Positions 1-54,866 of a DNA stretch of 64,000 nt are shown in pieces. Made by a program: the position numbers and the translations under genes. The stretch is taken from contig JBILXO010000001.1 in assembly GCA_044378415.1 (NCBI GenBank), positions 11,130-75,129 on the forward strand, given 5' to 3'. This stretch comes from Holosporales bacterium (GTDB lineage: Bacteria; Pseudomonadota; Alphaproteobacteria; Holosporales; Holosporaceae). The notes under the pieces are model-generated. The model saw only the letters and a list, made by a program, of their open reading frames with translations, ran no database searches and had not been told where the DNA came from. Position 1 is the first letter of the stretch, and the number at the start of each line of letters is the position of its first letter.

Positions 1-543
1 ACCCTTGCCAACAGCAGACCAAATGTCGGTATTTTGTGCCGCAGACAAACCCATCATCATGAACAATCCAATGGCGACTATATCTTGAAACAGCAAAATG
101 GATAGTGCCGTTCGCCCGGATTGAGTGGTGAGTTCATAGCGCTCTGACAGCAGTTGGACCACCACGGCTGTGGAGGAAAAAGACAGGGCGATGGATAAAA
201 TTAAGGCTGTATCCCAGGGCATAAGAAATTGGGTGATGGAAAATAGCACGCCACTGGTTGCAAAAACTTGGACAAGGCCAAATCCGAAAATATAGCGCCT
301 CAATGCACGAATGCGGTGAAAGGGGATTTCCAGACCCACCGTAAACAAAAATAGCAGCAGTCCAACTTGCCCCAAAATAGATAAAAATGGTGTTTTTTCA
401 AACAATCCAAACCCCAATGGACCCAAAACAATGCCAGATAATAGGTAGCCAATGGCAATACTGACTCTGGTTTTTTGACAAATCACAAATGATCCCAAAA
501 CAGTGGCCAACAAAGCTAAAAACGTAAGTAATTCCTGAGGCAT
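1..543 (-). CDS. Kef-type monovalent cation:proton antiporter (CPA2 family), N-terminal 181 codons only; the rest lies left of the window
   Basis: My own minus-strand translation from ATG 543-541 stays open to base 1 (MPQELLTFLALLATVLGSFVICQK..GYLLSGIVLGPLGFGLF..LLLFLFTVGLEIPF..LLFQDIVAIGLFMM). It shows the TM-helix pattern and the GPxGxG and GLE motifs of KefB/KefC-like exchangers. It is absent from the ORF track because it runs off the edge. Confidence 0.7.
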   Translation of the reverse strand, partial: MPQELLTFLALLATVLGSFVICQKTRVSIAIGYLLSGIVLGPLGFGLFEKTPFLSILGQVGLLLFLFTVGLEIPFHRIRALRRYIFGFGLVQVFATSGVLFSITQFLMPWDTALILSIALSFSSTAVVVQLLSERYELTTQSGRTALSILLFQDIVAIGLFMMMGLSAAQNTDIWSAVGKG

Positions 544-1195
544 AGGGCAATGGGAAGAGGTTTTAAGTAATTGTACCCTAGATGGATCCGTATAAAAAGA
601 CTTTTTCAAAGATTATTATTTTTGCTTTTTCGGATAAGTGAGATAGGGCGCAGTCCTTGATAGGGCCATAAAAGGAAAGTGGTAAAAAAAAGATTGTCAT
701 GAGCTTTTAAAAAATCCCATGGATCTTTTGACAAAATTGGACCATAAAAATTAATTAATGGGTGGGGTCAAGGGGCATGGGGACCCGTTCTGCAAGTCTT
801 AACCGGCCGTCTAGAAACTGGGGGAGGCTTAACTTTAAAATTACCCCCAATATTTGAAAACAACCTGGTTGGCAGGACCATCAATCCTGGCCAGCCTTCC
901 AGGCAATCAATGGATTTGGGAAGGAGGGGGATGGTGTGAATTTATGTTCAGAGCAAACAAGGTCTACAGATGGGAACAAGGGGGATCCAATGAGGATTTG
1001 TCATGATTCTACTGAAAAAATGGTCGAAAGAAATCTGAAAAGACCACCTCGGAACATAGAAAGATGGAAAAATCGGGACCTGTATTCAGCTTTCAATCAT
1101 TCTAGCGCAGAAAAAATTTAGAAAAATGCAGGGTGTTTAATAGGGGGGGGAGGCACGCAGCCCAACAGTAAGACAACGGTGGAGGTGGGTCATTG

Positions 1196-1299
1196 ACAGA
1201 TGTCTTTGCAAGAGGAATGTATCAAACAGCATATTTTCGGGATGGAACAGATGCCTTTGCAACAGGAATGTTTTGCCACAGATGTGTTTCAACAAAAAT
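1196..1299. repeat. Three degenerate copies of a ~25-nt motif ACAGATG(T/C)NTTT(G)CAA(G/C)A(G/A)(G/A)AAT, next to the 3' side of tRNA-Val
   Basis: Copies start at about 1196, 1247 and 1278. The overlapping 67-aa and 84-aa ORFs look like repeat artefacts. Confidence 0.4.
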
Positions 1300-1416
1300 C
1301 TTTTTCCAAAAGAATGCATCATCCGAACATACCATCTATATATGGCATCACTCATCCCAATAGTGCCATGATATTGAATAAAATATGGCAAGTGGTATTG
1401 TAAAAAATTTGGAATG

Positions 1417-1488
1417 TGGGCGATGAAGGGATTGAACCATCGACCCTCTCGGTGTAAACGAGACGCTCTGCCGCTGAGCTAATCGCCC
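1417..1488 (-). tRNA. tRNA-Val (anticodon UAC)
   Basis: Minus-strand cloverleaf: GGGCGAT-TA-GCTC-AGCGGCA-GAGC-G-TCTCG-TTTACAC-CGAGA-GGGTC-GATGG-TTCAATC-CCTTC-ATCGCCC-A. The acceptor stem is a perfect 7 bp, the T loop is TTCAATC, and the T stem has one T:T mismatch. CCA is not encoded. Confidence 0.9.
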
Positions 1489-2248
1489 CTACAAAAAATA
1501 GTATCATGCATTGTCCGGAACAAGCAAGTCAATTTTTAGAAAAATATTTTAGAGGGTGTTCCCATTGGGATATTTGTCTTGGAATCCATGACCGGTTGGA
1601 ATATTCTAGCAATATGTTTTGAATTATTTAGACAAACACGAGCATTGGAATAACATTGCCTGAAAAATTTTTCTGAAAATATGGCCAGTCTTTTGGACTT
1701 CTTTTTTCGATTTACTGGGGCCTCTACTTCTAATCTCAAAAATACCACCATCTCACCTTTATTCCGTTTTGTCTCAAGATCTATTTTTTCTACCCAGCCC
1801 CCTTACTCGGATCTTTCCCAGTGCCCTCTGTTCTTATGTACCTTGTTCTTACCTATATCTATATCTCGGGCCTCAGTATTTCCAGGATCAGAATCTTCAA
1901 GGTTATAGCACGCTCCTTGCGATTACATTGGTGTGGGACCTCTCACGGAATGCTCTTTTGTTGTTGGACTTGGTGCCGCTGTCTTTGCCAGTTGCACGGG
2001 CTCTAGATTGATGGGTTGGTGGCCCTACGGATCTGCTTTTAATTGCCCTTATTTTTTGACTTGTCTCAAATTTTTGATTTGCCTCAATCTATGCTGGGCA
2101 GGCCCTGGTGGAGGCCATCTGCCACCGTTTTTTCAGTGACTGTTATTGTTTGCTTTTCATTACCTTACCCAGCAATTTATTTTTTGCACTGCATTTAATT
2201 TTGTCAGATTTATTCTATTGAATGAACGCTATTAAGATTTATTGAAAA

Positions 2249-3196
2249 TCAAAAATCGTCCCTGCTCTTCTTCAATGCTTCAGCCATTTCTTGCCTTTCC
2301 CGCTCTGACTCTATTGATTCAGCCAACGCCATATTCTCCATTTGCACATTAGCTGAATCTAAATCTTCCTGATCCCTCCTATTTTTTTCTTCTGCCGCTG
2401 TTATTTGGCTCCGCCTCATAGCTTCAGCCATTTCCGGATCTTCCTCTTGGACATTTTTTTCAGGTTCTTTGTCCTTGTTTTTGCTAGGGGCCATCTGGAC
2501 CGATCCTGTAGGCTGATTTTTTTGGGCTAATTGTTTTTTGGCGAGGGCTTCCTTCATCTTTTGCTGGGCATCTGTGGAGGCTGCCTTCTTCATGACATCT
2601 TCATATTTGGCTTTTGTTTCATCCTTCAGATTTTCCAAATCAGGCGCCTCATATAAATCATTAAACCCATTCCCTATATTATTTTGTTCCGAGAGTATTC
2701 GATTCATTTCATTATCGTATAAATCTTTTTCTTCATTAGACAAATAATCTTTTTTTTCTATTTCCCTCAATCGAATGTTGTTTAATTTTCTATGAATTGC
2801 AATTGCATTTGAGTGAAAATGAGCGTCAACGTTGGAGTCAACTAATGCTGCAATTTGTTGAGCAAAGGTAAAAATAATACTTCTTTCGCCTAAACTGAAA
2901 TCACTTGCGAACTCCTCCTGCGAAGTGCTTGAGAATGCTGTGAGTAAATCCTCAATGCTACGGCGGTAAGTGGGATCTTTGGCCTCTGTAAATGATTTCG
3001 CCCATGTTGTTTTGAATGCCTCATAATCTCCCTTCGATATCCTAGTAAACATATCGTAAGCTGTGGCCAGGACTTCCAAAATAGCTTTTTCCTCAGCCTT
3101 TCGTTTTTGAATGGAACTGGTGCTCTCAATAGCTTTAATGGGTTTGCTAGGCAGTATTGCCGCTGATAACAAGATTATGGTTAATAAATTTTTCAT
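2249..3196 (-). CDS. Secreted ORFan protein with C-terminal ubiquitin-interacting-motif (UIM)-like repeats
   Basis: 315-aa ORF with a Sec-type signal peptide (MKNLLTIILLSAAILPSKPIKA) in AT-rich DNA. The C-terminal 68 aa contain EEDPEMAEAMRRSQ and ERQEMAEALKKSRDD, which fit the UIM pattern acidic-Phi-x-x-A-x-x-x-S, plus a degenerate third copy (NMALAESIESE). Confidence 0.7.
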   Translation of the reverse strand: MKNLLTIILLSAAILPSKPIKAIESTSSIQKRKAEEKAILEVLATAYDMFTRISKGDYEAFKTTWAKSFTEAKDPTYRRSIEDLLTAFSSTSQEEFASDFSLGERSIIFTFAQQIAALVDSNVDAHFHSNAIAIHRKLNNIRLREIEKKDYLSNEEKDLYDNEMNRILSEQNNIGNGFNDLYEAPDLENLKDETKAKYEDVMKKAASTDAQQKMKEALAKKQLAQKNQPTGSVQMAPSKNKDKEPEKNVQEEDPEMAEAMRRSQITAAEEKNRRDQEDLDSANVQMENMALAESIESERERQEMAEALKKSRDDF

Positions 3197-3538
3197 TTGT
3201 ATATTGTTTATTTTTGCACTTAATCTATATTTAAAGGAATTATTTTAAAATAAAGTTAAAATAATTGGCAATTTTTCGGTATCACCGATTCAAAAAAGTT
3301 CAGTATGAAGAGGTTGTAATTTAGGAGCAGTTGGAATTACCCTCATTGATCCCTCTCACCTCCCACCCATTTCGGTGAAAAAAACCTGGAATATCCATTT
3401 GATCGTAATGCCAAAAATTATTACAAACAAATTTATTTTTTAAGATATTAAATTTACTTATATTTAATGTTATTTATTGTAATATAGTGTTGTGCAAATA
3501 ATTGTGCAAAAATTTAATTTAATAAAAGGATTTTCAAA

Positions 3539-3904
3539 ATGAAAAACTATATGATTTTAAGCCTGGTCCTGTGTTTGGGCGCATCCATCCATGCTGGTCC
3601 AAAAGAGGATTTGATTGATCATCTGGATGGATACCACAACAAAATGTCCAACGATATAGGGCGTGACTTTTCTAGTGCAAAAATGCTTCACGAATTGGGT
3701 AGATCCAGAATGAAAACAATGATCGATGATTCGGTTAAGGCAAATCCGGAAGATTCGGGGGTTCGGGATGTTGCCACAAAATTTGAAAATGGCGCCATAT
3801 TGGTAAGCAAAGCTGCATTTGACAAAGAGGCTGATACTGGAATTAAGGCGGTCAACAATGATCTAGACCTAGAAGCTGGCAATATTGAGGATTTTAAAAA
3901 ATAA
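3539..3904 (+). CDS. Small secreted hypothetical protein
   Basis: 121-aa ORF with signal peptide MKNYMILSLVLCLGASIHA and a very AT-rich 340-bp upstream leader. It is divergent from the 2249-3196 gene. I recognise no family. Confidence 0.6.
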   Translation: MKNYMILSLVLCLGASIHAGPKEDLIDHLDGYHNKMSNDIGRDFSSAKMLHELGRSRMKTMIDDSVKANPEDSGVRDVATKFENGAILVSKAAFDKEADTGIKAVNNDLDLEAGNIEDFKK

Positions 3905-4589: not shown

Positions 4590-5147
4590 TTAGGGCACCT
4601 CTTCTTCCGATCCTGGAAATAAGATCCAATGCATTTCATTGTATTTGGAATCTAATTTTGATTCTAGTTCTTCACAATATATCCCTGATAAATATTTAGC
4701 CATATTTATTTCTTGTTTAAAAATGAATTCTTTTTCAATTAAGGTTTTTTTGATATTGCAGCAAGGTGAAATATTCCTTATATCTATGTATTCCAACAAA
4801 GCTTTATGCCGCAATACGTTGACAGCAGTGCCCCTAGCCCACTTTGGGATTGTTGATTTTTTTAAAAAGTCTTTTATTTTTTCACAGAATTCCTTGACCT
4901 CTAGATTGGATTCAAAATCATGAAAATTATTGTATTTTTTTGAAATTTTTAAAGTTAATTTATCCAAAATTTTTGAATTGGAAGATGTAAGTTTTCCATA
5001 TTGTAAATAAGATTCATTTTTATTTTTTGATTGAACCAATTTGGATGATTGATCTAACCCGTTAATATTTTCCACAGGCCATACATGACATGGCCTTATG
5101 CACAAGATCTGAACCAATATCCACAGGATTTTTTTCATTTTCACCAT
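4590..5147 (-). CDS. Secreted hypothetical protein
   Basis: 185-aa ORF, AT-rich and K/N/I-rich, with a hydrophobic N-terminus (MVKMKKILWILVQILCI). I recognise no family. Confidence 0.5.
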   Translation of the reverse strand: MVKMKKILWILVQILCIRPCHVWPVENINGLDQSSKLVQSKNKNESYLQYGKLTSSNSKILDKLTLKISKKYNNFHDFESNLEVKEFCEKIKDFLKKSTIPKWARGTAVNVLRHKALLEYIDIRNISPCCNIKKTLIEKEFIFKQEINMAKYLSGIYCEELESKLDSKYNEMHWILFPGSEEEVP

Positions 5148-13714: not shown

Positions 13715-14179
13715 TCAATCCTGGTAAGCCGAATCCTCATCATCATCACCCTCGTCATCCTCCACATCCTCATCATCATCGAAATAGGCATTCTTTGGCA
13801 GAAGCAGTGGTTTTGTTTCTTCAGATGCCGTTGTCTGTTTTGTTTTTTCAGATGCAATTGTCTGCTTTGTTTTTTCAGATGCAATTGGCTTTTTAATGGG
13901 TGTCACGTTATTCCCATATTTTTCATCCTCATCATCATCCTCTACATCTCCATCATCATCCAAATGGGCACCTTTTTGTATCAGCAGCAGTGGTTTTGTT
14001 TTTTCAGATGCCGTTGTCTGTTTTGTTTCTCTAGATGCAGTTGTCTGTTTTGTTTCTCCAGATGCCGTTGGCTTTTTAATGGGCGAAACATTGGGCCCGC
14101 GGGCATCATCCTCGTCCTCACCATCCTCGTCGTCGTCGCCCTCATCTTCGTCGTCGTCGTCATCCTCCACATCTTCGTT
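13715..14179 (-). repeat. In-frame coding repeats forming the PBP1A tail
   Basis: There are two ~60-aa modules. Each consists of an acidic D/E block, then G(P/N)NV(S/T)PIKKP, then three copies of the octad ASxxTKQT, then KPLLL. A third acidic block follows them. The antisense ORFs at 13690-14284 are repeat shadows. Confidence 0.85.
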
Positions 14180-16162
14180 GAGATTGCTGGAAACGCGTTT
14201 ACCAGGTTTGCCCAAAGCAGCCCACTTAGACTCATTGGGATGACCTTCGGAATCTTCCCAAGCAGGATCCTTTGGATTCTTTAAATAGTGCAACAAAACA
14301 GCATTAAAGCTTTTCCATAAATGCAGAGATGGGGAACCGTTGGACAAATGCGGCATGCCTTTTTCATTATCGCATCCCGTCCATACCCCTGTTACGCACT
14401 GGGGTGTCATGGCAATAAACCACAAATCCCGATCCAATTTACCTTTATTGGACGTACCAGATTTCCCCATCAGTGGCACAGAGCCAATATTGGCCAATCT
14501 GCCTGTACCCGAAATAAAGACTTGGCGAAGAAGGGTTTTCATATCCCGCACGACATTGGATTCCAGTATTGGATCTGTGCGCTCATTTTTATGCCGATAC
14601 AGGCATTTTTTATCGCGATTGTGAACAGCTGCGATGCCATGGGGGCGCGCAGCGTGACCATCGTTCAAAATAACGGCAAAAGCCCCAGTCATTTCCAGTA
14701 AGCGAACCCCAGATGTTCCCAGTGCCAAAGTATAATTTTGAGACTGGGTTGGAATGGGCGATTCAATGCCCATTTTTCGGGCCATTCGAATGATTCTTGG
14801 GATACCTACCCGAACAGCCAAACGGATGGCCACAGCATTAACAGATTTGGAAAAGGCGTTGAGAAGACTGATGGATCCCGTCGAGGTATAGCGAAAATTC
14901 TTAGCTGTCCACTTTCCAAAGCTGATGGGGCGGTCGTCAATGCGAGAATTTGGGGAATATCCAGCTTCCAGTGCAGCCAAATATACAAAGTATTTAAAAG
15001 CCGATCCCGATTGACGCAAAGCCTGGGTAGCGCGATTGTAAGAGCTGTTTTGATAGTCGACGCCCCCAACCATGGCTTGAATGGCACCCCGAGCATCCAT
15101 GGACACCAGGGCGGTTTGATCGGCTTTCCAAGACTTTCCATAGATCTCCATAACTTTTTTAGCTTGGCGCTCGGCTATGCGTTGAACATTGAGATCTAGG
15201 GTGGTGGTGACTCGAAGATCTTGGGATTGGGTATCCACAACTTCCTGTAATTCGTCGATGATCCAGTCTGTAAAATATCGGCCAGAATTTTGACGCGCAG
15301 TGGTGGCCAAAGATGATGGCATAGCCATGGCCGCCAAGGCCTCGTCCTCTCCGATAAATCCAGCTTGAACCATGGCATCTAAAACTTTTTGAGCCCGTAC
15401 TTCCGATCGTGCTTGATTGCGTACCGGAGAGTAAAAAGAAGGCGCTTGAAGCAATCCCATCAGTAGGGCCGATTCGTATAAATTAAGTTCTTGTGCAGAT
15501 CGACCAAAATATTTTAAGGCCGCAGCATCTAGGCCCCAGGTGCCTGAACCCATATACACACGATTCAGGTGCATGGTTAAAATTTGCGCCTTGGTAAAGC
15601 GCCGCTCGATTTGAAACGCCAGCAGTACTTCTGATATTTTTCGATGCAAAGATCGATCGGTATGGGAGTAGACTTTCTTGCTTTGTAAAAAGTTTTTCGC
15701 CAATTGCTGGGTAATGGTGCTGCCTCCCTGTACAACACGCCCTGCCTTTAAATTGGTGTAAAAAGCCCGAGCTATTCCGATGGGATCAACCCCCATATGC
15801 TGATAAAATCGACGATCTTCTATGGCCAAAAGAGCATGAATAACATGGGAAGGCAGGTTCTCTGCGGCGATAGGTCGACCATAAAAATCCCCATAACTGG
15901 CCAAAGGCTGCCCATTGATATCAAATATTTCAATACTTGGACGACGAGAAAGGTGGACCAATCCATCGATATTGGGTAAATCGGAACCAAACCATAAAAC
16001 AATTGCGGTTAAAAACAGGCTGCCCCAAATGGCCATTAAAAATAACCACCTAAGAATGGCACTTATCTTAAAGCAAGACCATCTCTTTTTTTTCTTCGGT
16101 TTGTGAGATTCGATGGGATGGGGGCGCGAATGTTTGCGAGGACGGGACAAAAAACCGGGCAT
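13715..16162 (-). CDS. mrcA: Penicillin-binding protein 1A (bifunctional transglycosylase/transpeptidase) with an acidic repetitive C-terminal tail
   Basis: GT51 motifs [13 protein letters not shown] and [12 protein letters not shown]. Transpeptidase motifs SGSAFK (SxxK) and KSGTS. N-terminal membrane anchor. Confidence 0.85.
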
Positions 16163-28155: not shown

Positions 28156-29502
28156 TTAAAAGTTTAAAAGTCTGTACAATCTTTCTTGAAGTTTTTCATG
28201 ATCTTTTGAAACTTGTTTAAGATTTTCCAATTCTTTTTTCATCCAATCTTTGTAAGAGCTTTTATCCATTTTATTCACTACACTGCTTTCTATCATTTCC
28301 GCACTTTGTTCTATATTTGGAATTACGGTATCGCAAATACTGTCGATATTTTCAATATCCTTTTTTCTCATATAGCCTTGTTTTTCAGCATTCGTTACAT
28401 CAGCTCGAATCTGTCCTACAAAATTATTTGCTGCACTTAAGTAAGAACTAATTGACTCAAAAACTCCTTGTTGCATTACATTATCAAGTAATTCAAATGT
28501 TCCTACTATTTTAAGACCCAGTATTTTATAAACTGCACCGCTGACATTAGTGATAGATTCTCTGGAAGCATCTTCTAATGTCAGAGTCCTGAAAATGGAT
28601 CTCGCATCCTCTAATACTGAAGTGAATTCACGAAATGATTTGTTGTTAGCGCTTTTGTATTCGTCATATTGCTGTTGTTGGTATTGCTGGTATTGCTGGT
28701 ATTGCTCTTGTTGCTGCTGATTTCTCTGTTGTTGTTGGTATTGTTGGTATTGCTCTTGCTGCTGTCTCTGTTGCTGATATTGATTCCACCCTGTCTGTTC
28801 TTGTTGTTGTTGCTGATTCCACCCTGGCTGTTGCTGCTGCTGTCTCTGTTGCTGATATTGATTCCACCCTGTCTGTTCTTGTTGTTGTTGCTGATTCCAC
28901 CCTGGCTGTTGCTGCTGTTGTTTCTGTTGTTGTTGCTGATTCCACCCTGGCTGTTGCTGCTGCTGTCTCTGTTGCTGATATTGATTCCACCCTGTCTGTT
29001 CTTGTTGTTGTTGCTGATTCCACCCTGGCTGTTGCTGCTGTTGTTTCTGTTGCTGCTGCTGATTGTTTTTTTCGGCATTATCTTTTGACTCTTCATCATT
29101 CCCATTCGAGTCTTTAAGTGGATTGCTTTTTTTATTTTTATCAAAATTAGACGTAAATATCTTATAGAATTTATTCATACTCTCTTCAGTAGATTCGTCA
29201 ATTGACAATTTTTTCAGTAAAGTTTTTATTTTGTCTGGATGAAATAAAAGGCCCATTGCTCCTTTTAAACTTCGACCTCTGTTCAAAGTATTGGGAAGGT
29301 CTGTTTTAAATGTTTCTATGAATTCTTCATTTGAAAAGTTTGGATTTTCTTCTGAAAATTTGCTAATTTTTTTGATTAGCTCAACATTTACATCATCTTT
29401 TTCATCGATAGTTTTGTTTTTTTTTGTAAGTTCACTCATCATGGCATCTGTATTGTTTGTCAAGCATTGTGAAAGCAATAGAATAATTATTATTTTTTTC
29501 AT
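28156..29502 (-). CDS. Secreted protein with a central Gln/aromatic-rich prion-like repeat domain
   Basis: 448-aa ORF with signal peptide MKKIIIILLLSQCLTNNTDA. Residues ~148-282 are almost pure Q, with seven (P/T)GWNQ motifs followed by QQYQQYQQQQ-type repeats. A helical-looking C-terminal domain follows. The flanks are very AT-rich. Confidence 0.8.
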   Translation of the reverse strand: MKKIIIILLLSQCLTNNTDAMMSELTKKNKTIDEKDDVNVELIKKISKFSEENPNFSNEEFIETFKTDLPNTLNRGRSLKGAMGLLFHPDKIKTLLKKLSIDESTEESMNKFYKIFTSNFDKNKKSNPLKDSNGNDEESKDNAEKNNQQQQQKQQQQQPGWNQQQQQEQTGWNQYQQQRQQQQQPGWNQQQQQKQQQQQPGWNQQQQQEQTGWNQYQQQRQQQQQPGWNQQQQQEQTGWNQYQQQRQQQEQYQQYQQQQRNQQQQEQYQQYQQYQQQQYDEYKSANNKSFREFTSVLEDARSIFRTLTLEDASRESITNVSGAVYKILGLKIVGTFELLDNVMQQGVFESISSYLSAANNFVGQIRADVTNAEKQGYMRKKDIENIDSICDTVIPNIEQSAEMIESSVVNKMDKSSYKDWMKKELENLKQVSKDHEKLQERLYRLLNF

Positions 29503-34226: not shown

Positions 34227-35363
34227 TTAATCTTTTTTGGATTCTTCTGGTTGTTCTAGACTTTGAATTGGCTCTAAATTTTTCATTACTTCCCGATGAT
34301 TTGCCTCGAAATTTATTATTGCTTCCCAATTTATTTTTATTTTTTTATTTATTTTAAATTTCGAAAATACATCATCTATTTGGTTGACAATTTCAGTAAA
34401 ATATTTAATTTTATTATTTAATTCATCAATTTTATCAAATATTTCAACTTTATTGACTTCTGTACAGTACTTTAAAGAAACTAGAGTATCTTTTAATCCA
34501 TACAAGTGGCTGTCGATAAAACGTTCGGATTCATTTTCCAAGAGATTAAAAGTTTTTTCAATATTTTCTCTTTGTGATTGCAATATTTCTGAACTATTTT
34601 TCATACTATTTGTAAAATCAATTGAAGATTTTTTAAATGCTTTTTCACTTTCTGATTCAATTTTAAAAGTAGATTCTCTCCATGTAAAATTGGATGGTGT
34701 CGATCTAAAATTGGCCCATATCCATCCAAAATTGGATGCAGTATTTTTAGATGCAGGCAATTCACTAATTTTAACAAAAGAATCTTCGACTGGTGCTTTT
34801 ATTTCAGATCCGTCAGTTTTCAATGAATTTTCATTAGCTACATTGGAATTAATTGATTTCCAAAGATCCTCTATAGCAGATTGCAAATCAATGATCCCTT
34901 TTACAGCCATATGATCTGCTATTTGAAAAATGTAATTTTCCTCATCATTCAATGTGCCATCTTTTGATTTAAATTTAGAAACAAAACGATCACGGATAGT
35001 TTTATCATCGAGGATGTGCAAAATATGACCAACAATGGCTATATTATTTTCGTGAGTAGATTTAACTTTATAATTAAAGGAACCATCAATAAAATAACTT
35101 TTTCCATTGATATTAAATTCAAAATCCTTTCTAGACAATAATGCATCAAGTACATTCCTTGATATATTTTTCACATAAGTAGGGTGAGGGACTTCTTTTA
35201 GAAATTCTTTAAAATCCTCTTTATTTGCCTTGGAAGAATATTTTTTATTGCGCATTACCGGCCCAGTTGGTTCTTTGTAATGTTGCGCATTAAACACAGC
35301 ATGGGTGGAATAGGATGACATTGCCAGAACGGCCATAGCGATTTTTTTATAATTTTTTATCAT
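34227..35363 (-). CDS. Secreted ORFan protein
   Basis: 378-aa ORF, AT-rich, with signal peptide MIKNYKKIAMAVLAMSSYSTHA. It is K/N/E/I-rich and I recognise no family. Confidence 0.65.
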   Translation of the reverse strand: MIKNYKKIAMAVLAMSSYSTHAVFNAQHYKEPTGPVMRNKKYSSKANKEDFKEFLKEVPHPTYVKNISRNVLDALLSRKDFEFNINGKSYFIDGSFNYKVKSTHENNIAIVGHILHILDDKTIRDRFVSKFKSKDGTLNDEENYIFQIADHMAVKGIIDLQSAIEDLWKSINSNVANENSLKTDGSEIKAPVEDSFVKISELPASKNTASNFGWIWANFRSTPSNFTWRESTFKIESESEKAFKKSSIDFTNSMKNSSEILQSQRENIEKTFNLLENESERFIDSHLYGLKDTLVSLKYCTEVNKVEIFDKIDELNNKIKYFTEIVNQIDDVFSKFKINKKIKINWEAIINFEANHREVMKNLEPIQSLEQPEESKKD

Positions 35364-45823: not shown

Positions 45824-45926
45824 AAAATTCAAAAAAATCAGTAGGATTTTTTTGAATTCTGTGTTCTGACTGTGCATGGAATGGTTTTTGCACTATTATG
45901 AACAAAATGACAAAAATGTTCTTAGT

Positions 45927-47939
45927 ATGAAACACTCTTTTTTCAAAAGCTTATCGTGGACAACAGTGGCGTTCTTATTGGGCTGTCAACCTGCCTTTTG
46001 CCCCCCTGGAAACAATGCCTCTGTCAAAAAAATCAACGCCATTAAAAAGAAAAAAAACAACAGCACATCTGGAATAAAGTCTGTTACAGAAGCTTTTCAA
46101 ATGGCCTATATTTACAATACAGACATTCAGACGGCCTTCAATAGTCTGAAAATGGCCCAGGAAAATTGCTTTAGAATGCGTTCAGAATGGATGCCAAATA
46201 TTACTGCGAATATAAACGCAAGTAAAAGTCCTACAAAAAATTTTATAACGAACAATGTTGGAACACTGGAAAATGTGGTTGAGGACTCCTATATCCAGAA
46301 ACAAGAAAACCGGAGCTGTACCGCCAACTTTCAAATTGTTCAGAACTTATACAATGGTGGGGCAACTAGGGCGAAAAATGAACAGGCCTTTGAGGTGTTC
46401 AAGGAACACTATTGTGATTTCAAAAACACAATACAGAATGTTTTTAACGAGGTTTTGAGGGCTTTTGTAGATATGTGTTGTTCCAGAGAGTATTATTTGA
46501 TCAGTAAAATGCGCGAAAAGAGCTTGAGTGTTTTGCGTGAAATGGCGAGAAATCGCTATGTTGCAGGGGATCAGCGCATGGTGGACGTTTCTCTGGCCAA
46601 TGCCCAGTGCATTCGCCAGACCATTGATGTGAACAACGCAAGGCTAGAATATATGAGCAAAAAATTAGAATTGGAGGCTTTAACGGGTAGTATTTTTTCC
46701 GATACCTTTGATTTTCCAGTACCGCTAGAGGTTGACCTTTACTCGGTCCAGGATTTTACTGCCTTGTGCTTGAAATCTAATCCAGTTATACAAAAACAGG
46801 TCCACGCTCAGCGTGCAGCGCGCTGCAGAGTCAATGAGTCTGCATCCAATTTTTTACCCAAAGTAGAGCTTCAATTAAACCAGAACCTGTCGGACACCTA
46901 TCAATTTGATCATAACGACAACTTTGAGTCCTTTCCAACCATCAACTCTACCCGAGGTTTTTCAGCTGCAATTGGTGTTGCGATCCCTATTCTTGATGGG
47001 GGTGGATTTCAGGCAGACTATCGTAGAACAGAATTAGAGGTCAAAGGCACTCGATTGAATTCAGAGGCTGTAAAAAGAAACCTGATTCGTGAAGTCAAGT
47101 CCACAATTGCCGCATACCAATTGTCATTGCAAAATGTTGTTTCTGCCAGGGAGGCTCTGAAGGAACAGGGTGCTGCATTTGCTTCTTCCAGACAGGAGTA
47201 CGCCCTGGGGGCAACAACCATGGTGGACTTGCTGGGACTAGAGGACCAATACGTCAATGCCATCAGGACATTGGTCGATGCCTTGGGGAAGGTGGTGCAA
47301 TACTCCTATAGCTTAAAGCGTCTATTGGGGCAATTGACACCCAATATGGTACATATCCAATCTATCAATAAAGATATTGTCGCCTATCGCAAATCATTTC
47401 AAACTGTTCTGTTTGCCTTGGGGGAAAATCAGTCCAAGACATCTCTTTATGAACAATCACCTTTGGATAAATCTAAAGGTGGCAGCGATATCTTAAAGGG
47501 CTGCGACGAGGGTGAGGGAGCGCTGGATTCCATTGAGTCTGCATTGAAAGAAGGTATCGATTGGTATCCTGTAGAAGGCATTGCTTTGGAAGAGGGCAGT
47601 TCGGATTCTTTGAAAGATCTGAATCCCGATATATTGCAAGAATTGTTGCTCAAGCAGGAAGGTGAATCATCGTCTAATTCGAATGCCAAGAATATGGATA
47701 TAGAGGCTTTGATGAATGCACCATTGGTAGAGTCCATTGAAAATCCTGGGCCAGGATCCGATAAAAACGGGATATCGGCTGATTTGAACAAGGGTCCTGA
47801 TTCTGACGTACTCCCTAGGGATGGGAAGGAAAATAAATCTAAAAAAAGACCAGATGTGAATTCTAAAAAATCTAAAAAATCTAAAAATGGACAAGTCGTT
47901 GATGGAGATGGGTCTAAAAAAACCAATGCAGAAATATAA
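45927..47939 (+). CDS. TolC-family outer-membrane efflux protein with a ~180-aa low-complexity C-terminal tail
   Basis: Lipoprotein-like signal (MKHSFFKSLSWTTVAFLLGC). Two OEP-type helical/beta repeats (LTEAFQMAYIYNTDIQTAF...; LTALCLKSNPVIQKQ...). The tail is D/E/S/G/K-rich. The ORF track starts at 45876. Confidence 0.65.
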   Translation: MKHSFFKSLSWTTVAFLLGCQPAFCPPGNNASVKKINAIKKKKNNSTSGIKSVTEAFQMAYIYNTDIQTAFNSLKMAQENCFRMRSEWMPNITANINASKSPTKNFITNNVGTLENVVEDSYIQKQENRSCTANFQIVQNLYNGGATRAKNEQAFEVFKEHYCDFKNTIQNVFNEVLRAFVDMCCSREYYLISKMREKSLSVLREMARNRYVAGDQRMVDVSLANAQCIRQTIDVNNARLEYMSKKLELEALTGSIFSDTFDFPVPLEVDLYSVQDFTALCLKSNPVIQKQVHAQRAARCRVNESASNFLPKVELQLNQNLSDTYQFDHNDNFESFPTINSTRGFSAAIGVAIPILDGGGFQADYRRTELEVKGTRLNSEAVKRNLIREVKSTIAAYQLSLQNVVSAREALKEQGAAFASSRQEYALGATTMVDLLGLEDQYVNAIRTLVDALGKVVQYSYSLKRLLGQLTPNMVHIQSINKDIVAYRKSFQTVLFALGENQSKTSLYEQSPLDKSKGGSDILKGCDEGEGALDSIESALKEGIDWYPVEGIALEEGSSDSLKDLNPDILQELLLKQEGESSSNSNAKNMDIEALMNAPLVESIENPGPGSDKNGISADLNKGPDSDVLPRDGKENKSKKRPDVNSKKSKKSKNGQVVDGDGSKKTNAEI

Positions 47940-52294: not shown

Positions 52295-52564
52295 AGTGTT
52301 TGACCCTGGTTATTCAGAAAAAAGCGCCCCCTCAGTGTAATGATTTTCATGAAAAAAAACAGGTCCTTTCTATGAAAAATATATTTTTTTAAAAAGCGTA
52401 GTGTATTTTTTTCCAGTAATGCCGGCATATGCCCACCTGCAATCCCTTGTTTTTGAGCCCCGAAAACATTTCAAAAAAGTGCTATAAAATTAATTTAATA
52501 ATAATCATTTTTTTACAATAATTGCATTATAATTATTTTAAATAAATAAAAATTGCGACTGACT

Positions 52565-53629
52565 ATGTTAAAAGAAACTGCAGCAAAAAACCCAGCAGTG
52601 GCGCGATATTTCATGGGTAGCTTATGGTATGGATGGATTTGTTTTTGCCCCATGACGGTTGTACTGGGCGAGATACAAGATGGTGCGTCGCCATGGAGAA
52701 TAGAGCGCAACGCTGCTGAGAAAAAAGATTTCTTTGCCGCAGATGTTTTTAAAAAAACAGGGATTCATTTGGAAAAAATCACCTCAAAAAAGTATGGATA
52801 TGTGCCTTTTGTTGGACAAAATTCCAAAAGAAACCATATATTCTATCGCCCCGCAGATGCCGTCATTTCTAGCATTGTTTTGCACGATACCATCGGGTCA
52901 CTTTTTTCCACACTGAATAAATTTTCAGATGCCAAGGAACCATTGCTCAATGCCCACTATGTTGTAACGCAAAGAGACAAAAACATCTCGGGTGGCATTG
53001 CCATCGAAATGGTCCCACCGGAATATATGGCTCAGCATGCTTGGCCCAGTTGGTTTGGGGGGAAGGATGATTGCAACCAATTTTCCATAGGCATTGAGCT
53101 GGTGGGCAAGGGCTTTGTCAGTCATGGGGGCAAGCGATTTTTTTATCCTTACGACGCCGATCAAATAAAAACTCTGGGCCCATTGCTGCAAGGATTGGTC
53201 CAAAAATACGGCATCAGGCCTGAAAACATCCACAGTCATGGGGATGTGTCTCCTCAGCGCAAATACGACGTAACCATTGCCTTTCCTTGGAAGACTTTGT
53301 ACGAAAAATATGGGGTGGGTATGGGGTTAAGTACCAACGAGAATACAGAGCAGGCCATTGTCAAAAAGTACCAACCCGTTGTGCCCTTGCCTCAAAAATT
53401 TGATGGTCTGTTTTTTCAAAAATGCTTGTCTCAATTGGGGTATGATACGCGTTTCGCAGAGGACGCCTCCCTCTCTTCAGCGGACCGAGGTGGAAAATGG
53501 ACCAACGTGTACCAGGCTTTTTATGGGCATTTTTCTCGCAACGGAGAATCCCCCAGATGGAGAGGTTCCCCCGATTACAAAGATATGTTTTGGGCCTGGG
53601 CCTTGCTGGCGAAATATTTCCAATCCTAA
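52565..53629 (+). CDS. N-acetylmuramoyl-L-alanine amidase (amidase_2 / AmpD-PGRP fold) with a C-terminal PG-binding-like domain, paralog 1
   Basis: IVLHDT, NAHYVV, FSIGIELVGKG and HSHGDVSPQRKYDVT. N-terminal hydrophobic anchor. The C-terminus (LSQLGYD...FYGHFSRNGESPRW) is shared with paralog 2. Confidence 0.75.
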   Translation: MLKETAAKNPAVARYFMGSLWYGWICFCPMTVVLGEIQDGASPWRIERNAAEKKDFFAADVFKKTGIHLEKITSKKYGYVPFVGQNSKRNHIFYRPADAVISSIVLHDTIGSLFSTLNKFSDAKEPLLNAHYVVTQRDKNISGGIAIEMVPPEYMAQHAWPSWFGGKDDCNQFSIGIELVGKGFVSHGGKRFFYPYDADQIKTLGPLLQGLVQKYGIRPENIHSHGDVSPQRKYDVTIAFPWKTLYEKYGVGMGLSTNENTEQAIVKKYQPVVPLPQKFDGLFFQKCLSQLGYDTRFAEDASLSSADRGGKWTNVYQAFYGHFSRNGESPRWRGSPDYKDMFWAWALLAKYFQS

Positions 53630-53744: not shown

Positions 53745-54866
53745 ATGAGAAAAAAAATTTTGATATATTTTTTGCCAACACTCTGTCTTTTGGCATCTAT
53801 ATTTTTCAAGCCTGGGGCCATTGATCAGGATCCAATAAATTCCCACGATGCCATAGTCGCAATTGCGAAAAAAAATGGTATTACGGTGGAACCACAGAGC
53901 CATTTGCCCGGTGTTCACTATACATTTAAGAAATTTTCAGATGAGAAATTTTCAGAAAAAGAGCATCCAAGAAACCACAGTTTTGAAAGGGAAAATGGTC
54001 AAAAGCCCACATGGATCATCGTTCACGATACGTGTGAGAATTTAGGGCCCACCTTTGGGATATTTACGAGTGGTAAAGAGCCCAGGGTCAATGCCCATTA
54101 TGTAATCAGTGAGAAGGAGATCGGTGGGGCGGGGGAGGATGAGATCCCAGGGGGACAGGTGATTCAAATGGTGGACCCCGTTGATTTGGCTCGGCATGCA
54201 GGTGAGAGCGCCTTTCGTGGAAAAGTCAAATACAACAACCATGCCATAGGCATAGAATTGGTGGGCCGTGGACCCAGATACTCTGAAAATAAAGAAATAC
54301 GCTTTTTTACATTCAATGATCCGGAAAATCTGAAAAAAACCAGATTTCCTTCTTACGATAAAGATCAAATCAGGGCTTGCTTTGGGTTGATTAAAATTTT
54401 ATGTGAAAAATATGGCATACCAAAGGAAAATATTGTCAGCCATGGTGACGTTGCGCCGCAACGCAAATACGATGTGACCATTCGTTTTCCCTGGGCTGAA
54501 TTGTTCCAAGAAGGTTACGGAATGGGCCTAACAAAAAATGAGCTGCAGAATATCAAAAGCAGGATTCCCTCGACATTTAATAGGGACGTTTTCATTCAAT
54601 CGTTGAAAAAATTGGGATACGACATGTCCTTTTGTGAGAAAAAAATAGGGGATAAGCCAGGGGAAATCCAATTAAATGGCACCGAATCAGATGAGTTTCA
54701 ACAGAAGTTTAAAATGGTTTGTCTTCAATTCTATGCCCATTTTTCCCGCAATGGGGAGAGCGAGCGATGGAATGGCGATCCTGACCACAACGACATGGCT
54801 TGGGCAGCTGCTTTGGCTGAAAAATACGAACAATCCTCGTCGGATGATGCCGTAAAAAAGATTTGA
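53745..54866 (+). CDS. N-acetylmuramoyl-L-alanine amidase (amidase_2) with a C-terminal PG-binding-like domain, paralog 2, secreted
   Basis: Signal peptide MRKKILIYFLPTLCLLASIFF. IIVHDT, NAHYVI, HAIGIELVGRG and SHGDVAPQRKYDVT. C-terminus LKKLGYD...FYAHFSRNGESERW. Confidence 0.75.
   Translation: MRKKILIYFLPTLCLLASIFFKPGAIDQDPINSHDAIVAIAKKNGITVEPQSHLPGVHYTFKKFSDEKFSEKEHPRNHSFERENGQKPTWIIVHDTCENLGPTFGIFTSGKEPRVNAHYVISEKEIGGAGEDEIPGGQVIQMVDPVDLARHAGESAFRGKVKYNNHAIGIELVGRGPRYSENKEIRFFTFNDPENLKKTRFPSYDKDQIRACFGLIKILCEKYGIPKENIVSHGDVAPQRKYDVTIRFPWAELFQEGYGMGLTKNELQNIKSRIPSTFNRDVFIQSLKKLGYDMSFCEKKIGDKPGEIQLNGTESDEFQQKFKMVCLQFYAHFSRNGESERWNGDPDHNDMAWAAALAEKYEQSSSDDAVKKI

Follow-up and report, generated by a model that had tools for sequence, protein, structure and literature searches.

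Does an exported orphan protein of a Holosporales bacterium end in ubiquitin-interacting motifs? Analysis of a duplicated, charged C-terminal tail

Does a bacterial protein that carries an export signal end in ubiquitin-interacting motifs (UIMs) of the eukaryotic type? The question is raised by a 315-residue orphan protein encoded on the reverse strand of contig JBILXO010000001.1 of a Holosporales bacterium, within the stretch of 64,000 nucleotides that we analyzed and call the window (unprefixed positions below are those of the window). A sequence-only reading of this DNA had proposed that the final 68 codons of the open reading frame (ORF), which together with the stop codon occupy positions 2249..2455, encode two tandem UIMs with a third, off-register copy between them, and it had put the protein forward as a candidate effector. 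Bacteria of the order Holosporales live in obligate association with eukaryotes (PMC11909080), and the effector idea is therefore reasonable in principle. Our analysis of the target protein, as we refer to it here, leads us to conclude that the likeness of its tail to UIMs is probably fortuitous.

The protein does begin with what reads by eye as a Sec-type signal peptide, and all three of the strings quoted in support of that proposal are present in the tail: QEEDPEMAEAMRRSQ spans residues 250-264, QMENMALAESIESE spans 285-298, and ERERQEMAEALKKSRDD spans 298-314. Written from their first residues, the peptides are Q250-EEDPEMAEAMRRSQ, Q285-MENMALAESIESE, and E298-RERQEMAEALKKSRDD, and the tail holds EEDPEMAEAMRRSQ, then NMALAESIESE, then RQEMAEALKKSRDD. 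We number the copies 1, 2, and 3 from the N-terminal side (Table 1). Copies 1 and 3 fit the pattern Phi-x-x-A-Phi-x-x-S, in which Phi is a hydrophobic residue, with at least two acidic residues among the five that precede it. The middle copy was correctly described as off register: it lacks the core Phi-x-x-Ala-(Phi)-x-x-Ser in any single register, offering either A289-x3-S293, whose -3 position is not hydrophobic, or M288-x2-A291, whose Ser residues stand at +2 and +5 rather than at +4, and it is slipped by one or two residues relative to copy 1.

Outside the core, the lead-in of copy 1 (E-E-D-P-E) matches those of Vps27 and S5a, that of copy 3 (R-E-R-Q-E) has two acidic residues with an Arg between them, and that of copy 2 (V-Q-M-E-N) is poor. 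The claim that both motifs fit the UIM consensus holds for the core of copies 1 and 3, but its last element, an acidic residue after the Ser, is found only in copy 3. Copy 1 continues as Q-I-T-A, with no acidic residue within four positions, and the third position after Ser is Thr in copy 1 and Asp in copy 3. The residue just before the Ser (position 11) is Arg in copy 1 and Lys in copy 3, and is Leu, Met, Val, or Glu in all 16 of the reference UIMs described below. The Glu that precedes the Ala in copies 1 and 3 is also a departure from UIMs.

Profile searches do not place the tail among the UIMs. At E ≤ 10, neither Pfam UIM (PF02809) nor UIM_2 (PF23625) matched the whole protein, its 68- or 72-residue tail, or any of the three isolated motifs; in the same run, the controls S5a UIM1, S5a UIM2, Vps27 UIM1, and the Hrs UIM scored 26.9, 16.7, 18.8, and 18.4 bits. 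With the speed filters of HMMER, the absence of a Pfam UIM match means a score below about 11 bits. Ten variants with one to three substitutions toward the consensus (Met to Leu, the Arg or Lys before Ser to Leu, and Thr to Glu, singly and combined) still failed to match either family, so that a search proposed in the sequence-only reading as its own check went against it.

We also built a hidden Markov model (HMM) and a position-specific scoring matrix (PSSM) from 16 literature UIMs, four of which were validated against Pfam. Genuine UIMs scored 15.8 to 26.8 bits with this HMM in leave-one-out tests, whereas copy 1 reached 6 to 7 bits and copy 3 no more than 2.6. With the PSSM, copy 1 scored 12.0 bits, compared to 18.2 to 35.8 bits for genuine UIMs, and copies 2 (in its A-x3-S register) and 3 scored -3.9 and -1.8 bits. 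The expectation that the copies would outscore shuffled sequence was borne out marginally for copy 1, the only one to exceed composition-preserving shuffles (P of 0.017 to 0.027), but not for copies 2 and 3, which did no better than the shuffles. When the three copies were compared with a UIM alignment by hhalign, they aligned in the correct register, but with a probability of 14% and a P value of 0.0019. Scanning the protein and the tail against Pfam and NCBIfam brought up nothing but noise below threshold (DUF3040, DUF7041, and a PatA-type protease), and no UIM chain or significant match came from searching PDB sequences with the tail, with the whole protein, or with a three-copy profile. 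As judged by profiles, the tail is not a member of the UIM family.

Copies 1 and 3 are the products of one in-frame duplication rather than two independent matches, and they therefore count as one event. The 27 nucleotides at 2264-2290 and 2408-2434 are 81% identical and lie 144 nucleotides (48 codons) apart. The nonamers EMAEAMRRS (copy 1) and EMAEALKKS (copy 3) align with a BLOSUM score of 33 (P of about 0.001 relative to shuffles), all nine positions being identical or conservatively substituted, and EMAEA is encoded in both by 14 consecutive identical nucleotides. A fourth, degenerate copy farther upstream has neither the Ser nor an acidic flank.

In shuffles of the 72-residue tail that match its composition, one match to the regular expression has a P value of about 0.009, and two matches were seen in none of 30,000. 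In natural sequence, the minimal expression had six other matches in 56,153 residues (ORFs of at least 150 amino acids from the window and related loci), two of them within the window; the base rate is about one per 10,000 to 14,000 residues, which by extrapolation amounts to tens per genome. When metagenome contigs were scanned for EMAEA[LM][KR/Q][KR/Q]S with a degenerate DNA pattern, 25 stretches matched, a number near the chance expectation by our own estimate, and their in-frame translations showed varied contexts in unrelated prokaryotic proteins, none resembling the target. EMAEA[LM]xxS, as found in these stretches (contigs L011-L035), is a common helical sequence and not the signature of a single family. 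Helices rich in Glu, Ala, Met, and Ser readily yield Phi-x-x-Ala-x-x-x-Ser, and this is why chance appears to us the likelier source of the resemblance. In ataxin-3, UIM3 is well conserved in sequence and yet showed no ubiquitin binding in a pull-down (PMC2951365), so a sequence fit alone is insufficient.

The AlphaFold2 model, calculated without an alignment, is poor overall (mean pLDDT of 53), but residues 254-314 are predicted to form one helix, with pLDDT of 64 to 80. The model assigns no secondary structure to residues 227-253, just ahead of this helix, and within them pLDDT drops under 50 at 228-241. A Foldseek search of the model against the PDB gave a best E value of 1.1, which is meaningless. 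The tail is 44% charged, with a hydrophobic moment of 0.01 to 0.32. A coiled coil was considered for it and rejected: by a crude test, there is no hydrophobic heptad pattern at the a and d positions in any register, strong hydrophobic residues occupying at most 29% of them. The sequence-only reading had named an ordinary coiled coil as an outcome that would tell against UIMs, and this is not what the tail looks like.

If the signal peptide is cleaved after Ala22, as appears likely, the protein would be periplasmic or released. Its last ~62 residues would form a solvent-exposed, highly charged helix tethered to the body by a disordered linker of ~27 residues. The tail was built by in-frame duplication of EMAEA[ML][RK][RK]S, with the two copies 48 codons apart; a decayed copy lies between them, and the Ser-less fourth copy lies upstream. 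More probably than a dedicated ubiquitin receptor, such a tail would be a flexible, charged arm of generic function, serving an envelope or surface protein for interaction or as a spacer. Like charged single alpha-helices and the acidic tails of envelope proteins, it is rich in charged residues, lacks a hydrophobic heptad pattern, is predicted to be a long helix, and arose by internal repetition. A balanced E/K/R pattern is typical of stable single alpha-helices, however, and the target tail is instead net acidic, with a charge of -7.

A duplication kept in frame, with all nine positions identical or conservative, and a predicted exposed, charged helix on a flexible linker might also point to a binding module for a partner other than ubiquitin, such as another host protein, the ubiquitin-like ATG8 or NEDD8, or a component of the bacterial envelope; some UIMs do bind NEDD8 (PMC7226360). 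However, no particular partner is positively supported, and the duplication may be recent, given the 14 identical nucleotides over EMAEA, so that conservation between the copies says little about selection. We regard such a module as quite improbable.

Several points weigh against a chance likeness and in favor of ubiquitin binding. Copies 1 and 3 keep all of the contact positions (Phi, Ala, Phi, and Ser) at the right spacing, and the spacing of their Met, Ala, and Ser equals that of the ubiquitin contacts Leu229, Ala232, and Ser236 of ataxin-3 (PMC2951365). Copy 1, EEDPEM..A...S, has the EEDP[DE]-Phi start of Vps27 UIM1, and by the PSSM it is the top-scoring 17-mer among the 95,087 ORF residues scanned. 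An exposed helix behind a disordered linker and with no heptad pattern, as predicted here, is the usual setting of real UIMs, and a tandem arrangement is typical of those with low affinity (PMC7226360). The organism lives with eukaryotic hosts (PMC11909080), and the gene lies in a variable slot of signal-peptide orphans, described below, the sort of site at which host-interaction factors evolve. Moreover, the interaction or spacer-arm role has no positive evidence of its own.

On these grounds, the tail might consist of functional UIM-type helices. The exported protein would reach the host cytosol, where copies 1 and 3, and perhaps copy 2, would bind weakly at the Ile44 patch of ubiquitin; avidity for poly-ubiquitin or ubiquitylated cargo would then let it interfere with host ubiquitin-dependent sorting, autophagy, or degradation. 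Periplasmic proteins of the related Holospora are released into the host during infection, as indicated by references listed in a review of the group (PMC11909080), a TolC-like gene lies within the window, and degenerate UIM-like ubiquitin binders have a precedent in Mycobacterium tuberculosis PtpB and, with conflicting reports, PtpA (PMC13275282). We nevertheless consider functional UIM-type helices unlikely. The profile tests all fail or are marginal, a basic residue stands before the Ser where the references have a hydrophobic residue or Glu, copy 1 has no trailing acidic residue, and the acidic run of copy 3 is interspersed with Arg. In addition, the base rate of the motif in ordinary proteins is high, copies 1 and 3 are not independent, no orthologues are available to show selection on the motif, and a Sec signal argues against delivery by the type VI system, the conserved candidate of the group (PMC11909080); that route does not use Sec signals. 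The more specific proposal, in which tandem UIM-type helices arose by in-frame duplication in a fast-evolving orphan gene of a protist-associated bacterium, not by transfer from a eukaryote, and bind host ubiquitin, poly-ubiquitin, or a ubiquitin-like protein, is rather doubtful.

Like the UIMs of S5a/Rpn10, Vps27, Hrs, ataxin-3, and RAP80, copies 1 and 3 are short single-helix motifs with an acidic lead-in (weak in copy 3) followed by hydrophobic-x-x-Ala-hydrophobic-x-x-Ser, and they are arranged in tandem on a predicted exposed helix near a flexible linker. Unlike those UIMs, they go undetected by Pfam, score 10 to 25 bits lower in our own profiles, have Met in place of Leu at the first hydrophobic position, and sit in a bacterial, Sec-exported orphan without orthologues. 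PtpB of M. tuberculosis (and PtpA, which is disputed) resembles the target in being a secreted bacterial protein with a degenerate UIM-like helix, and that of PtpB is reported to bind host mono-ubiquitin (PMC13275282). The PtpB region, however, forms part of a phosphatase fold, where it switches catalysis allosterically, whereas the target has a free tandem C-terminal tail and no catalytic domain.

Among bacterial proteins, our literature search turned up none with free tandem canonical UIMs, and for genuine UIMs in effectors of Legionella or other symbionts it found nothing beyond the "UIM-like" reports on PtpA and PtpB; in the bacterial cases that are known, the UIM-like regions are degenerate and lie within enzymes. 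Should the tail bind ubiquitin, it would thus be a rare bacterial case of free tandem UIM-type helices and the first molecular handle on the manipulation of protist hosts by Holosporales other than Holospora. It would represent convergent mimicry of the host ubiquitin system by a short motif, seen near its origin, and the protein would join the known class of eukaryote mimics in bacteria as a modestly novel member. As it stands, the locus serves mainly as a warning that the textbook UIM consensus is loose enough to be matched by ordinary bacterial proteins; unless profiles, conservation, or binding provide evidence, a match in a charged helix is therefore no ground for inferring that it binds ubiquitin.

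The N-terminus of the target, MKNLLTIILLSAAILPSKPIKA, is followed by IE after the likely cleavage site and, read by eye, consists of a basic n-region (MKN), a 12-residue hydrophobic h-region (LLTIILLSAAIL), and a c-region (PSKPIKA) that places I-K-A before the cleavage site. Because it has no lipobox Cys, the signal peptide is not of the lipoprotein type. Judging from this signal, the mature protein is very probably exported, to the periplasm or to the outside of the cell. A Sec signal does not show delivery to the host cytosol, which is the site of ubiquitin.

The last 25 residues of the protein are rich in Glu, Ser, Arg, and Lys, and Glu-rich C-terminal signals occur on type IV secretion substrates; the acidic C-terminus could accordingly be a translocation signal rather than a binding motif. 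We give this very little weight. An N-terminal Sec signal is atypical for type IV substrates, neither type IV nor type VI genes were seen in the 64-kb window, and the conserved candidate secretion system and likely effector route of the group is, according to a review, type VI rather than type IV (PMC11909080). The same review states that no effector of this bacterial group is known experimentally. The stage-specific 89-kDa, 63-kDa, and 5.4-kDa periplasmic proteins of Holospora come from the same order, are likewise lineage specific and exported by signal peptides, and, so far as the references listed there indicate, are released toward the host during infection, but they have no sequence similarity to the target, and the source organism is nearer to "Candidatus Finniella" than to Holospora.

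The databases searched contain no orthologue of the target in which conservation of the motif, the strongest in-silico test, could be followed. A word-indexed search of 5.8 billion protein clusters returned only the target itself (P0001) and a 30-residue fragment (P0002), and neither an exhaustive HMMER search of 1.84 billion representative proteins nor scans of 185,579 species genomes and of metagenome contigs added anything to these two. The lack of homologues, the absence of a clear Shine-Dalgarno sequence before the ATG, and the adjoining 760-bp stretch without long ORFs could mean that the ORF is spurious or decaying, but this is highly improbable. Chance would seldom produce an open frame of 315 codons at 38 to 40% G+C, the signal peptide is well formed, and a promoter-like site lies upstream. 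The G+C contents of the codon positions (GC1>GC3>GC2, at 0.47, 0.38, and 0.34) resemble those of real genes nearby. A second assembly, the 2.2-kb metagenome contig L001 from JGI, keeps the frame open as well; its DNA is 99.95% identical over window positions 959..3176, and the protein that it encodes, P0001, is 100% identical to the target. The target gene is genuine and specific to its lineage within the Holosporales.

In related metagenome-assembled genomes (MAGs), the stretch from tRNA-Val to hscB holds other orphan proteins in place of the target. There are three of them, L003 6292..7173 (+), L002 5312..6454 (+), and L002 7706..8374 (-), none similar to the target, and the first and the last have signal-peptide-like N-termini. 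The two on the plus strand look related to each other (SWKDWNKFF and SWDDWYRFF). The tRNA-Val-hscB stretch is a variable slot for exported proteins beside a tRNA gene.

The source bacterium is assigned to the Holosporales because its PepA is 59 to 67% identical to that of MAGs labeled "Ca. Finniella inopinata," Holosporales, or Holosporaceae, its groEL DNA is ~81% identical to that of these MAGs, and the gene order tRNA-Val...hscB-iscA-pepA-groEL is common to the window and the related MAGs. The window is ordinary bacterial chromosome, with iscA, hscB, pepA, groEL, fabA, and a class A penicillin-binding protein gene, together with the genes for RNase PH, nrdB, tmk, bamE, uppP, lgt, pheS, and gpsA. 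It also encodes a TolC-like protein, a porin, and two amidases. The target and its neighbors are lower in G+C than the housekeeping genes of the window. The features of the target locus are collected in Table 1.

Table 1. Positions of the target gene, its upstream site, and the parts of the encoded protein in the window
Feature	Positions	Strand	Residues	Sequence	Remarks
Target ORF, 315-aa exported orphan	2249..3196	-			Stop codon included; sole long ORF of that stretch
UIM-like copy 3	2252..2305	-	298-315	ERERQEMAEALKKSRDDF	Core M304, A307, L308, S311; matches the regular expression
Off-register copy 2	2306..2350	-	283-297	NVQMENMALAESIES	NVQ...MA.A common to copy 1
UIM-like copy 1	2399..2449	-	250-266	QEEDPEMAEAMRRSQIT	Core M256, A259, M260, S263; matches the regular expression
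Lys/Pro/Asn/Gln-rich linker	2438..2518	-	227-253		Predicted disordered (AlphaFold2)
Degenerate fourth copy	2531..2566	-	211-222	QQKMKEALAKKQ	Self-comparison score of 27-28 versus copy 3
All-helical body	2519..3130	-	23-226		Predicted by single-sequence AlphaFold2, pLDDT mostly <60
Predicted Sec (SPase I) signal peptide	3131..3196	-	1-22		Cleavage after I-K-A; read from the sequence by eye
Sigma-70-like promoter match	3242..3271	-		TTGCCA-18-TAAAAT	10/12 positions, 46 nt upstream of the target ATG; consensus match only

Between the tRNA-Val gene (1416..1488, minus strand) and the stop codon of the target, the 760 bp at 1489..2248 contain no ORF of more than 80 amino acids and include a terminator-like hairpin at 2106..2124 (+). 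This stretch had no match in Rfam at gathering thresholds, and it could be what is left of a gene that has decayed, or it could encode an RNA that has escaped annotation.

Residues 57-89 of the target (~2930..3028, minus strand) were considered as a possible cathepsin propeptide (I29) and the candidate was rejected. The similarity was to a single chain, 3qj3_A, an insect cathepsin L-like propeptide, over ~32 residues with E values of 0.055 to 0.29 (YEAFKTTWAKSFTEAKDPTYRRSI in the target aligned with WENFKTTYARSYVNAKEETFRKQI). Other procathepsins and Pfam I29 gave no match to residues 57-89, and the similarity to 3qj3_A is probably due to chance.

Three further orphan ORFs in the window, at 3539..3904 (+), 4590..5147 (-), and 34227..35363 (-), have signal-peptide-like N-termini and low G+C contents of 0.41, 0.30, and 0.29, respectively. 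None matches Pfam, and only the first has a homologue, at 33% identity, in a Holosporales MAG (L003 7469..7849). These three ORFs and the target suggest that fast-evolving exported proteins form a set dispersed among the housekeeping genes.

A larger orphan of 448 amino acids at 28156..29502 (-), with a signal peptide and a low G+C content of 0.35, has ~150 residues in which a glutamine-rich unit of the type QQQQQPGWNQQQQQEQTGWNQYQQQRQQ is repeated in tandem. The periods reported by Tandem Repeats Finder are 78 and 123 nucleotides, with 94 to 98% identity, and the protein has no match in Pfam. Its prion-like, Q-rich composition is reminiscent of the proteins of amoebozoan hosts, and it may be a better candidate for mimicry than the UIM-like tail.

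The TolC-like outer-membrane efflux protein, encoded at 45876..47939 (+), is unusually long at 687 amino acids. The two N-acetylmuramoyl-L-alanine amidase (Amidase_2) genes, at 52553..53629 (+) and 53745..54866 (+), are neighboring paralogs, and the class A penicillin-binding protein gene lies at 13715..16162; the amidase pair and the penicillin-binding protein show that this symbiont has kept a full peptidoglycan machinery.

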